Source of the DNA: a bacterium
Lineage (GTDB): Bacteria; Babelota; Babeliae; Babelales; JAUWHS01
Direction of reading: 5' to 3'
Length of the DNA stretch: 56,877 nucleotides
NCBI GenBank assembly: GCA_030605785.1
Contig: JAUWHS010000065.1
Coordinates: 1-56,877 of the forward strand
Each line of letters starts with the position of its first letter. The first letter of the stretch is position 1. A program made the position numbers and the translations under genes. The notes under the pieces are model-generated. The model did no database searches. It saw nothing but the letters and a program-made list of their open reading frames with translations, and had not been told where the DNA came from. This document shows, one piece after another, positions 50,413 to 51,717 of this stretch.

Positions 50413-51717
50413 TTACAGTATTTGGCAAAACCAATATCTATCTTCATCAATTTGCATTGAATTTTCATTTTCTTCAGATTTGAGCTCTTCCGGATTAACA
50501 TATTCGTGTTCTCCCGTTATATCTAGGAGAGGGGAGAAAAGAGAGTTTGGTATTTTTACTTTTCCGTTGTTGCTTTCGAGATTGAGAGTCCAAAGTCTTG
50601 TTAAATTACCAATTGATTCGGGCAAAGATGTGAGTTGGTTGTTGTTGATGTAGAGCTTCCAAAGTCTTGTTAATTTCCCAATTGATTCAGGCAAAGATGT
50701 GAGTTGGTTGTTGTTGAGGGATAGTTCTGTAAGCCTTGTTAATTTCCCAATTGATTCAGGCAAAGATGTGAGTTGGTTGGAGTTGAGATTGAGATCTTGA
50801 AGGCTTGCTAAATTACCAATTGATGCGGGCAACTTTTCAAGTTGGTTGTTGGGTAGGCAGAGCCATTCAAGGTTTGCTAACTTCCCAATTGACTCAGGCA
50901 AATATGTAAGTTGGTTGGAGTCGAGATCGAGATCTTGAAGGCTTGCTAATTTACAAATTGATTTAGGCAAAGATGTAAGTTTGCTGTAGCTGATGTTGAG
51001 CCTTATAAGGTTTGTATTTTCATTTTTAATTAATATTAATGGAAATAACACTGCTAATTTAGCATTTGTGAGACCGTTGCTCGATAAATTAATATATGAC
51101 TTTTTATCGTAATCTAAATTGTCATTAAATAATTGATTTCTTATCTTTACAAACTCATTTTCATCTGACTTCAAAACTTTCAATGCGTATGTAAAAAGAG
51201 AATCTTGTGAAAATTGATTCCAATCAATATTTTGATTTTGATTTACGTAAGCAATAGCCGCAAACATGGCTTTTGCATTGCGAAGATAGTCTAAATTATC
51301 TGAATCAGATTGTGTTACGGCATTTGACTCTAATTTTTCTTTAATTTGAGAGATTTTATTATTTAGTTTTTGCCAATCATCTTTAAAATTTATATTTTTC
51401 CAATGTGCTGCATCGTAACCAGGAATTTGAGAAAAGTTATCCGGTAAATTATCTTCTACTTTGTGTTGCCAAACTTGCCAATCGTTTGCAAAACAATTCC
51501 AATTTTTAGAAACACACTCAGCTTTTCCTAAGTCTGTAAAATCTAGATTTTCGAAAATTATAAGAGAAAGTTCACCTGGAAGAACTTGAGTGAAATCTAT
51601 TCCTTGTTCATCAATTTCCATTTCATTGCCAAACATTCCAAACAAGCTTGGAACGTTTGCAGAAAGAAAAACAGATAAGAATAAAATTTTTAAAATTGTT
51701 TGTTTTAATATTTTCAT
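50413..51717 (-). CDS. F-box / leucine-rich-repeat protein ending in CQIL (tandem paralog 2)
   Basis: Signal-like N-terminus. F-box LPGELSLIIFENLDFTDLGKAECVSKNWNCFANDWQVWQHKV. Six to seven 23-aa LRRs (NQLTSLPESIGKLTRL). The C-terminus is ...DEDRYWFCQIL-stop. Confidence 0.85.
   Translation of the reverse strand: MKILKQTILKILFLSVFLSANVPSLFGMFGNEMEIDEQGIDFTQVLPGELSLIIFENLDFTDLGKAECVSKNWNCFANDWQVWQHKVEDNLPDNFSQIPGYDAAHWKNINFKDDWQKLNNKISQIKEKLESNAVTQSDSDNLDYLRNAKAMFAAIAYVNQNQNIDWNQFSQDSLFTYALKVLKSDENEFVKIRNQLFNDNLDYDKKSYINLSSNGLTNAKLAVLFPLILIKNENTNLIRLNISYSKLTSLPKSICKLASLQDLDLDSNQLTYLPESIGKLANLEWLCLPNNQLEKLPASIGNLASLQDLNLNSNQLTSLPESIGKLTRLTELSLNNNQLTSLPESIGKLTRLWKLYINNNQLTSLPESIGNLTRLWTLNLESNNGKVKIPNSLFSPLLDITGEHEYVNPEELKSEENENSMQIDEDRYWFCQIL
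50599..51012 (-). repeat. Tandem 69-bp coding repeats (six full LRR units) in paralog 2
   Basis: The periodicity is read directly, with recurrent ccaattgattcaggcaaagatgtgagttggttgttgtt units. Confidence 0.85.

Follow-up and report, generated by a model that had tools for sequence, protein, structure and literature searches.

Does a bacterial F-box protein carry a lipid-anchor signal that only a eukaryotic host could process? This question is raised by three tandem genes on the minus strand, here termed paralogs 1, 2 and 3, in a 56,877-nt stretch of bacterial DNA (GenBank contig JAUWHS010000065.1, analysed at its full length and called the window below). Paralogs 1 and 2 encode proteins with an N-terminal leader, an F-box and leucine-rich repeats (LRRs), and both end in the tetrapeptide Cys-Gln-Ile-Leu (CQIL), which has the form of a CaaX box. 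The preferred reading is that these two proteins are candidates for secreted, eukaryote-like F-box/LRR effectors in which CQIL would be a functional anchor, geranylgeranylated by the host; we rate its probability a little short of even.

The CQIL ending and the proteins that carry it

An earlier note on this DNA, made from the sequence alone, had read the end of paralog 2 on the minus strand (50427..50416) as TGC CAA ATA CTG followed by TAA, and both coordinates and codons proved exact. The final 16 residues (NSMQIDEDRYWFCQIL) are the same in paralogs 1 and 2. Of the window's 46 open reading frames (ORFs) that encode 100 aa or more, these two alone have a Cys at position −4.

The ending had further been classed as a CaaX box of the type recognised by protein geranylgeranyltransferase I (GGTase-I), and published enzyme specificities agree with this assignment. 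The yeast enzyme best modifies C-x-a-[L/F/I/M/V], its determinants being a2 and X; an Ile or Val in the a2 position also permits subsequent cleavage by Rce1 (PMC11304957). Arabidopsis PGGT1 shows low selectivity at a1 but demands a hydrophobic residue at a2 and Leu at the end; its 32 substrates include a CQIL construct (PMC3017772). In paralogs 1 and 2 the Cys stands exactly at −4, with Gln at a1, Ile at a2 and Leu at X, so that CQIL satisfies C-x-aliphatic-Leu (PMC11304957, PMC3017772). The CQLL ending given for Rap1B in the earlier note is right, and Rap1B-CQLL is a GGTase-I substrate (PMC7958859). By these enzyme rules CQIL is a credible prenylation signal, and prenylation of the two proteins is plausible.

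The F-box identity proposed for these proteins was borne out by Pfam matches above the curated cut-off (PF12937, 49.9 bits in paralog 1 and 35.1 bits in paralog 2 versus 24.3), and an LPxEL motif is present in the F-box. It is followed by a protein-interaction domain, the LRR solenoid, as in F-box proteins that act as substrate receptors of SCF (Skp1-cullin-F-box) ubiquitin ligases. Matches to LRR_14 and LRR_8 lie far over the Pfam cut-offs in both paralogs (LRR_14, E = 1e-25 to 5e-30). The closest solved structures, taken from the best 60 of 327 PDB matches, are LRRD1, Leptospira LIC proteins, SHOC2 and plant receptor kinases. In the AlphaFold2 model of paralog 2 (mean predicted local distance difference test score, pLDDT, of 63.9) the solenoid, with pLDDT >90 over residues ~250-410, is the only confident part. 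Between F-box and LRRs lies a helical region of ~130 residues, which was otherwise found only in the related proteins P0121 and P0123 described below.

The last 24 residues of paralog 2 were modelled, from a shallow alignment, with a pLDDT of ~46-55, a low confidence that would suit a flexible and exposed C-terminus. Over its final 50 residues the net charge is −7, and this part contains neither a polybasic stretch nor a further Cys. According to the 'second signal' rule, a prenyl group alone sends a protein to endomembranes and not to the plasma membrane (PMC9988375). With an acidic tail that offers no polybasic stretch and no Cys for palmitoylation, a prenylated paralog would be expected on endomembranes and not at the plasma membrane.

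All three tandem genes begin with a common 28-residue leader, MK.LK.TI.K.LFLS.FLS.NVPSLFGM. Judged by sequence features, its pattern (MK.LK..ILK, then LFLS.FLS, then NVPSLFG followed by M) and its mean hydropathy of 2.1-2.5 resemble those of a Sec signal peptide. The leader may instead be an uncleaved membrane anchor.

The source of the window is, by placement of its RNA polymerase subunit RpoB, a Dependentiae (TM6) bacterium. Window RpoB is 61-62% identical to the proteins of Vermiphilus pyriformis, a member of Candidatus Babelota (alias TM6 or Dependentiae), and of one metagenome genome, and at most 50% identical to those of the remaining loci returned. This agrees with the earlier view that the F-box plus CaaX combination stands here in a lineage other than Legionella. 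G+C content is 32% across the window. Members of this lineage parasitise protists as obligately intracellular bacteria. The phylum is described as consisting of parasites of eukaryotic microbes (PMC6561590, PMC4776705), and F-box and LRR domains as well as a core type II secretion system are known from TM6 (PMC4776705). In Chromulinavorax, signal peptides were reported for 44% of coding sequences and for 78% of the ankyrin-repeat proteins, which are the main effector candidates (PMC6561590). Because such domains, type II secretion and signal peptides are described in the phylum, an F-box/LRR protein with a leader is the kind of effector candidate to be expected in Dependentiae.

Beyond the sequence, its domains, the fit to the enzyme rule and the taxonomy, we infer that the proteins are secreted, arrive in the host cytosol, bind Skp1, become prenylated and are targeted to a membrane, in the following order. 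The N-terminal leader would direct export by Sec and then probably by type II secretion, a core system of the phylum. Once in the host cytosol, the F-box would bind Skp1, and the LRR solenoid would bring a host substrate to the SCF ubiquitin ligase. Host GGTase-I would geranylgeranylate the Cys of CQIL, after which -QIL would be trimmed and the new C-terminus methylated. The lipid would then keep the ligase at endomembranes or at the membrane that surrounds the bacterium, and not at the plasma membrane.

Origin of the shared tail and rival explanations

Several observations weigh against a functional anchor. In a full-length search of 5.8 billion clusters, full coverage was obtained only for the two window paralogs, and the rest were LRR matches. 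A profile of the N-terminal 240 residues returned no ortholog from 1.84 billion representatives (~15 billion proteins); its only matches there were P0121, P0123, paralog 3 (P0122) and the leader-only P0147, all of them partial relatives. P0121, P0123 and P0147, which have the common leader and/or the linker and LRR modules, were taken as the nearest relatives. Conservation of the Cys at −4, named in the earlier note as a check, was found only between the two tandem copies; the Cys is missing from P0121 (end PPTKSNL), P0123 (DYSFDV), paralog 3 (KIKTIT) and P0147 (LYILKN), and no true orthologs were found. The same profile detected no relative among 185,579 species genomes, and neither the tail peptide pattern nor the leader DNA pattern was present in JGI metagenome contigs. 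The sole viral-contig match to the pattern lay antisense within a phage tail gene and was discarded as a chance match. Exact look-ups of P0122, of P0001 (the public entry for paralog 2) and of the 434-aa form of paralog 2 gave no further contig.

Chance endings have to be considered as well. From the amino-acid composition of the window (Cys 1.2%), the expected frequency per C-terminus is ~4e-4 for C-x-[ILVF]-L and ~1.5e-3 for any CaaX-like ending, so that a genome of roughly at least 1000 genes should by chance have about one ending of this kind. The latter number is the assumed size of a TM6 genome; that of Vermiphilus is 1.12 Mb. Chance would be ~1e-3 for the two independent C-termini among the three F-box genes; a CaaX of any kind at any place in the window would have a chance of ~0.07. 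Since both copies of CQIL sit within one recently shared DNA tract, they are not independent and count as one observation.

This tract extends over ~150-180 nt at each of the two gene junctions. In the last 17 codons the DNA of paralogs 1 and 2 is 98% identical, with a synonymous divergence (dS) of 0; the 30-nt spacers of the two junctions have one difference, and the leaders that follow are nearly identical. Over the rest of paralogs 1 and 2, dS is 0.36-0.46 (gene-wide ~0.45), and the region just 5' of the tail shows ~55% identity with indels. The identity of the tails is therefore explained by their position within the shared tract. Recent tandem duplication, or a gene-conversion tract across tail, spacer and leader, is the simplest explanation of the frozen tail DNA, and the comparison offers no evidence for selection on the Cys.

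These data can be read as pointing to an incidental C-terminus, in which the final 16 codons were copied together with the spacer and the next leader by recent duplication or gene conversion, the Cys having no role as a lipid anchor. We consider this a serious possibility, at somewhat under an even chance. It would account for a tail, spacer and leader block that is 97-98% identical and free of synonymous change while dS reaches ~0.45 elsewhere in the genes, for the lack of a CaaX on paralog 3 and the nearest homologs, and for the failure to find orthologs in any database searched, and it accords with the expectation of about one such ending per small genome. Under this reading the proteins could act as F-box effectors all the same, or could fail to get to any compartment with prenyltransferases; no path leading out of the periplasm into the host cytosol is known in Dependentiae. 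An incidental ending fits less well with the fact that CQIL matches the enzyme rule in full, beyond a mere Cys at −4, and that it stands on a protein class (F-box plus LRR) with documented CaaX anchors in eukaryotes and Legionella. Moreover, the two proteins can be aligned, more weakly, for another ~30 residues upstream of the stretch that is identical, so that the C-terminal extension is older than the tract and not a fresh read-through. Nor does the tail-coding DNA resemble non-coding DNA upstream of other leader genes. An origin of the tail from such DNA had been considered when the 'GCCAA' of the Cys-Gln codons seemed, by eye and in a MAFFT alignment, to match the region 5' of P0147. It was ruled out, as the 48 tail-coding nt were not similar (p ~0.8, shuffle test with the upstream regions of paralog 1 and P0147) and only the 30 nt after the stop resemble upstream regions of other leader genes (shuffle z = 8.5-9.3).

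The zero synonymous change in the tail and the near-identity over spacer and leader could also mean that the DNA is kept for expression of the downstream gene, through an internal promoter, translational coupling or RNA structure, CQIL being a by-product. By eye, a TTGCCA-16 nt-TATAAA element overlaps the Phe-Cys-Gln codons and the spacer. This element was not among the promoter scan matches, and folding of the junction RNA was no better than that of shuffled sequence (z = −0.77); the similarity to upstream regions of other leader genes, limited to the 30 nt after the stop, likewise speaks against such a role. Internal promoters are not needed either if the genes are co-transcribed. The spacers between the three genes are 30 nt long, and the scan for promoters and terminators found no minus-strand terminator-like site between them; one promoter-like site upstream of paralog 1 and one hairpin after paralog 3 therefore suggest a single three-gene operon, which paralogs 1, 2 and 3 probably form. 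The DNA upstream of paralog 1 recurs 5' of P0147 in another contig (L003). Taken together, a role of the tail DNA in expression is very unlikely.

A two-frame constraint was considered as another cause of the frozen DNA. If paralogs 2 and 3 started 21 codons upstream (MKIDIGFAKYCK...), the end of the preceding gene would be coding in two frames, and the downstream frame is indeed open through the tail. The public annotation has this start for both genes: P0001 (455 aa) begins within the tail of paralog 1, and P0122 (275 aa), the gene call for paralog 3, likewise starts from an upstream ATG. Paralog 1, P0121 and P0147, on the other hand, have the leader Met as their first residue. In all five genes (paralogs 1-3, P0121 and P0147) this Met is preceded, at a distance of 7-8 nt, by a GGAG/AGGGA-like ribosome-binding site, and no such site precedes the upstream ATG. 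On the basis of the position of the ribosome-binding site and the comparison with paralog 1, P0121 and P0147, the leader Met was taken as the true start. A 21-residue extension ahead of a signal peptide would also be unusual. The annotated extension is most likely an annotation artefact, and dual coding is an extremely improbable cause of the conserved tail. The host-geranylgeranylated anchor that we prefer is, as it stands, a prediction from four residues, with no evolutionary replication.

Known and newly found CaaX proteins

The domain order of paralogs 1 and 2 has a counterpart in the human protein FBXL2, which consists of an F-box, LRRs and the ending CVIL and is geranylgeranylated at Cys420; the lipid is needed for membrane localisation, for assembly of an active SCF and for engaging membrane substrates (PMC9988375). 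FBXL2, which has a paralog FBXL20, and the window paralogs have in common an F-box, then an LRR solenoid, then a terminal C-x-I-L. They differ in their repeats: the LRRs of the window proteins are of the 23-residue SHOC2/LRRD1/Leptospira type, matching Pfam LRR_14, LRR_8, LRR_4, LRR_1 and LRR_13 and not LRR_6, and no FBXL or Skp2 protein is among the best 60 of 327 PDB matches. In contrast to FBXL2, the window proteins have a helical linker of ~130 residues, a bacterial signal-type leader and an acidic tail without a palmitoylatable Cys beside the CaaX. As the layout is shared and the LRR subtype is not, we treat them as analogues of FBXL2 and not as demonstrated homologues.

The earlier note had drawn a parallel to Legionella AnkB, an F-box effector reported to be farnesylated by the host (PMC2916131). 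The parallel holds in principle, since both cases are bacterial F-box proteins that end in a CaaX, that of the window being predicted from sequence. It does not extend to the partner domain, the lipid type or the secretion route, and FBXL2 is closer in domain order. AnkB has ankyrin repeats, a reported farnesyl group and Dot/Icm type IV secretion; the window proteins have LRRs, a Leu-terminal ending of the geranylgeranyl type and a Sec-type leader, and no Pfam ankyrin match was obtained for them.

Host prenylation has been found in other bacterial effectors. At least 11 CaaX effectors of Legionella are reported to be prenylated on ectopic expression, and vacuole localisation depended on the Cys in all seven tested (PMC13081727). 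GtgE of Salmonella is a host-prenylated CaaX effector (PMC13423502). The Legionella Pel/CMP effectors and GtgE resemble the window proteins in having a CaaX ending whose modification, available only in eukaryotes, serves membrane targeting, as predicted for the window. They differ from them in unrelated passenger domains, in delivery by type III or type IV systems and in that their CaaX endings are experimentally validated, that of the window being predicted. If real, the window case would join the known host-prenylated bacterial effectors from a new phylum and with an FBXL2-like layout.

Screening the C-termini of 230 retrieved homologs yielded two further CaaX cases. The first is a 56.4-kb contig (L086; ENA ERZ4200974 NODE_331) with seven tandem ORFs for LRR proteins with a signal leader at 848-10055, one of them a 119-aa fragment. 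It was regarded as bacterial because it carries genes for SMC, HU, TatD, MutS, SpoIID and RNase H. Four of the seven LRR ORFs end in a canonical CaaX: two in ...RRSNCIIS, one in ...SVKSGCVIS and one in ...LFESSCVIS. At the DNA level there are wide differences between the CIIS and the CVIS junctions, among them the stop codon and a synonymous site of Ile, and both keep C-[IV]-I-S. Conserved across two diverged junction types, the CaaX of this array looks selected, which is evidence of a kind that the window lacks. Both loci have tandem genes for a signal leader followed by LRRs of one repeat type, with junction blocks of tail, spacer and leader; the L086 proteins differ from those of the window in having tails of the farnesyl type (X = Ser) and no F-box.

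The second case, P0142, is a 226-aa protein encoded at 17-697 of a 1,076-nt Logan contig (L085; SRR32818187). Its contig was regarded as bacterial because P0142 adjoins a SecD/SecF C-terminal fragment. P0142 has an F-box (54 bits) and ends in ...QSKNCILL, CILL being a canonical CaaX of the geranylgeranyl type. It shares with the window proteins a closely similar F-box (DLGKxxxVSKxW) and a Leu-terminal CaaX and differs from them in lacking a leader and LRRs. To judge from these contigs, the window is not alone among uncultured bacteria in having LRR or F-box proteins with CaaX tails, which raises the prior for the window case.

A broader proposal would be that Dependentiae export, via Sec and type II secretion and with no injection system, FBXL2 look-alikes that the host geranylgeranylates into membrane-anchored, hijacked SCF ligases, as one instance of a wider, undescribed habit of placing CaaX endings on LRR/F-box effectors (L086, P0142). 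We hold this proposal to be possible and, on balance, doubtful. Legionella and Salmonella, two bacteria that inject proteins, have provided the experimental demonstrations of host prenylation of bacterial effectors. If the CaaX of the window proteins works, the strategy would extend to a phylum of protist parasites that branches deeply and is mostly uncultured, to effectors bearing a Sec leader and to a layout that mirrors FBXL2, a lipid-anchored ligase subunit of the host. A eukaryote-like domain plus a CaaX would then be a simple sequence rule for finding host-membrane effectors in metagenome-assembled genomes. In the literature searched, no paper was found that names both Dependentiae and prenylation.

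Features of the locus, leader module and neighbouring genes

Coordinates of the cluster and its features are compiled in Table 1.

Table 1. Features of the three-gene F-box cluster (positions in the window)
Feature	Position	Strand	Description
Paralog 1 gene	51746..53248	-	500 aa: leader, F-box, linker, ~9 LRRs and identical tail
CQIL codons, paralog 1	51749..51760	-	DNA identical to the paralog 2 codons
Paralog 2 gene	50413..51717	-	434 aa from the leader Met (MKILKQ...)
Paralog 2 leader (MKILKQTILKILFLSVFLSANVPSLFGM)	51634..51717	-	Sec-signal-peptide-like: start rich in Lys, then a hydrophobic core and, towards the end, a small residue; residues 8-20 have a mean hydropathy of 2.3
Paralog 2 F-box	51463..51585	-	Residues ~45-85 (434-aa numbering); PF12937 E=1.1e-8, 35.1 bits (cut-off 24.3); PF00646 26 bits (cut-off 20.5)
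Paralog 2 LRR solenoid	50494..51012	-	~7 repeats of 23 residues (LxxLxLxxNQLTSLPESIGxL), SHOC2/LRRD1/Leptospira-LIC type
Paralog 2 acidic C-terminal tail	50416..50493	-	Ends in CQIL; low-confidence model
CQIL codons, paralog 2	50416..50427	-	TGC CAA ATA CTG = C-Q-I-L; Cys codon 50427..50425
TAA stop, paralog 2	50413..50415	-	Reverse complement of 50413..50427 = TGC CAA ATA CTG TAA
Paralog 3 gene	49620..50384	-	254 aa: common leader, weak F-box-like match, helical domain; ends in KIKTIT, no CaaX
Annotated N-terminal extensions (MKIDIGFAKYCK...) of paralogs 2 and 3	51718..51780 and 50385..50447	-	Overlap the tail of the preceding gene in another frame
Junction block 1	51630..51808	-	Paralog 1 tail, stop, 30-nt spacer and paralog 2 leader; 97-98% identical to junction block 2
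Junction block 2	50297..50475	-	Paralog 2 tail, stop, 30-nt spacer with ribosome-binding site and paralog 3 leader; 97-98% identical to junction block 1
Sigma-70-like promoter match (best)	53311..53338	-	TTGAAA-16-TAGAAT, 10/12, upstream of paralog 1; likely operon promoter
Terminator-like hairpin	49579..49616	-	17 pairs, directly 3' of paralog 3

In the form MK.LK.TILK.LFLS.FLS..VPSLFGM, the 28-residue leader occurs at five sites, three of them in the window (50301..50384, 51634..51717 and 53165..53248, all on the minus strand), one in L003 (2121-2204) and one in a further contig (L002:28-111). The proteins that follow it vary: F-box plus LRR, a helical domain (paralog 3 and P0147) or LRR without an F-box (P0121). 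Leader DNA is conserved, with a dS of 0.13 versus ~0.45 for the genes. This pattern suggests a recombining leader module for secreted proteins of the Dependentiae lineage.

Two paralogous LexA-like genes (helix-turn-helix plus Peptidase_S24; 48815..49489 and 53682..54392, both on the plus strand) flank the three-gene F-box cluster, and the second of them is divergent from the promoter region of the cluster. Genes for ATPases with AAA_14 and DUF4143 domains lie near leader-bearing genes both in the window (55651..56826, plus strand) and in L003 (737-1879, minus strand); the two ATPases are different proteins. L003 is the Logan contig that carries P0147 and comes from the same sequencing run as the PNPase of the window. 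Finally, the GyrB of the window (1,245 aa; 7292..11029, minus strand) is interrupted by an intein, seen as a Pfam Intein_splicing match at residues 449-871, between the GyrB domain and Toprim.

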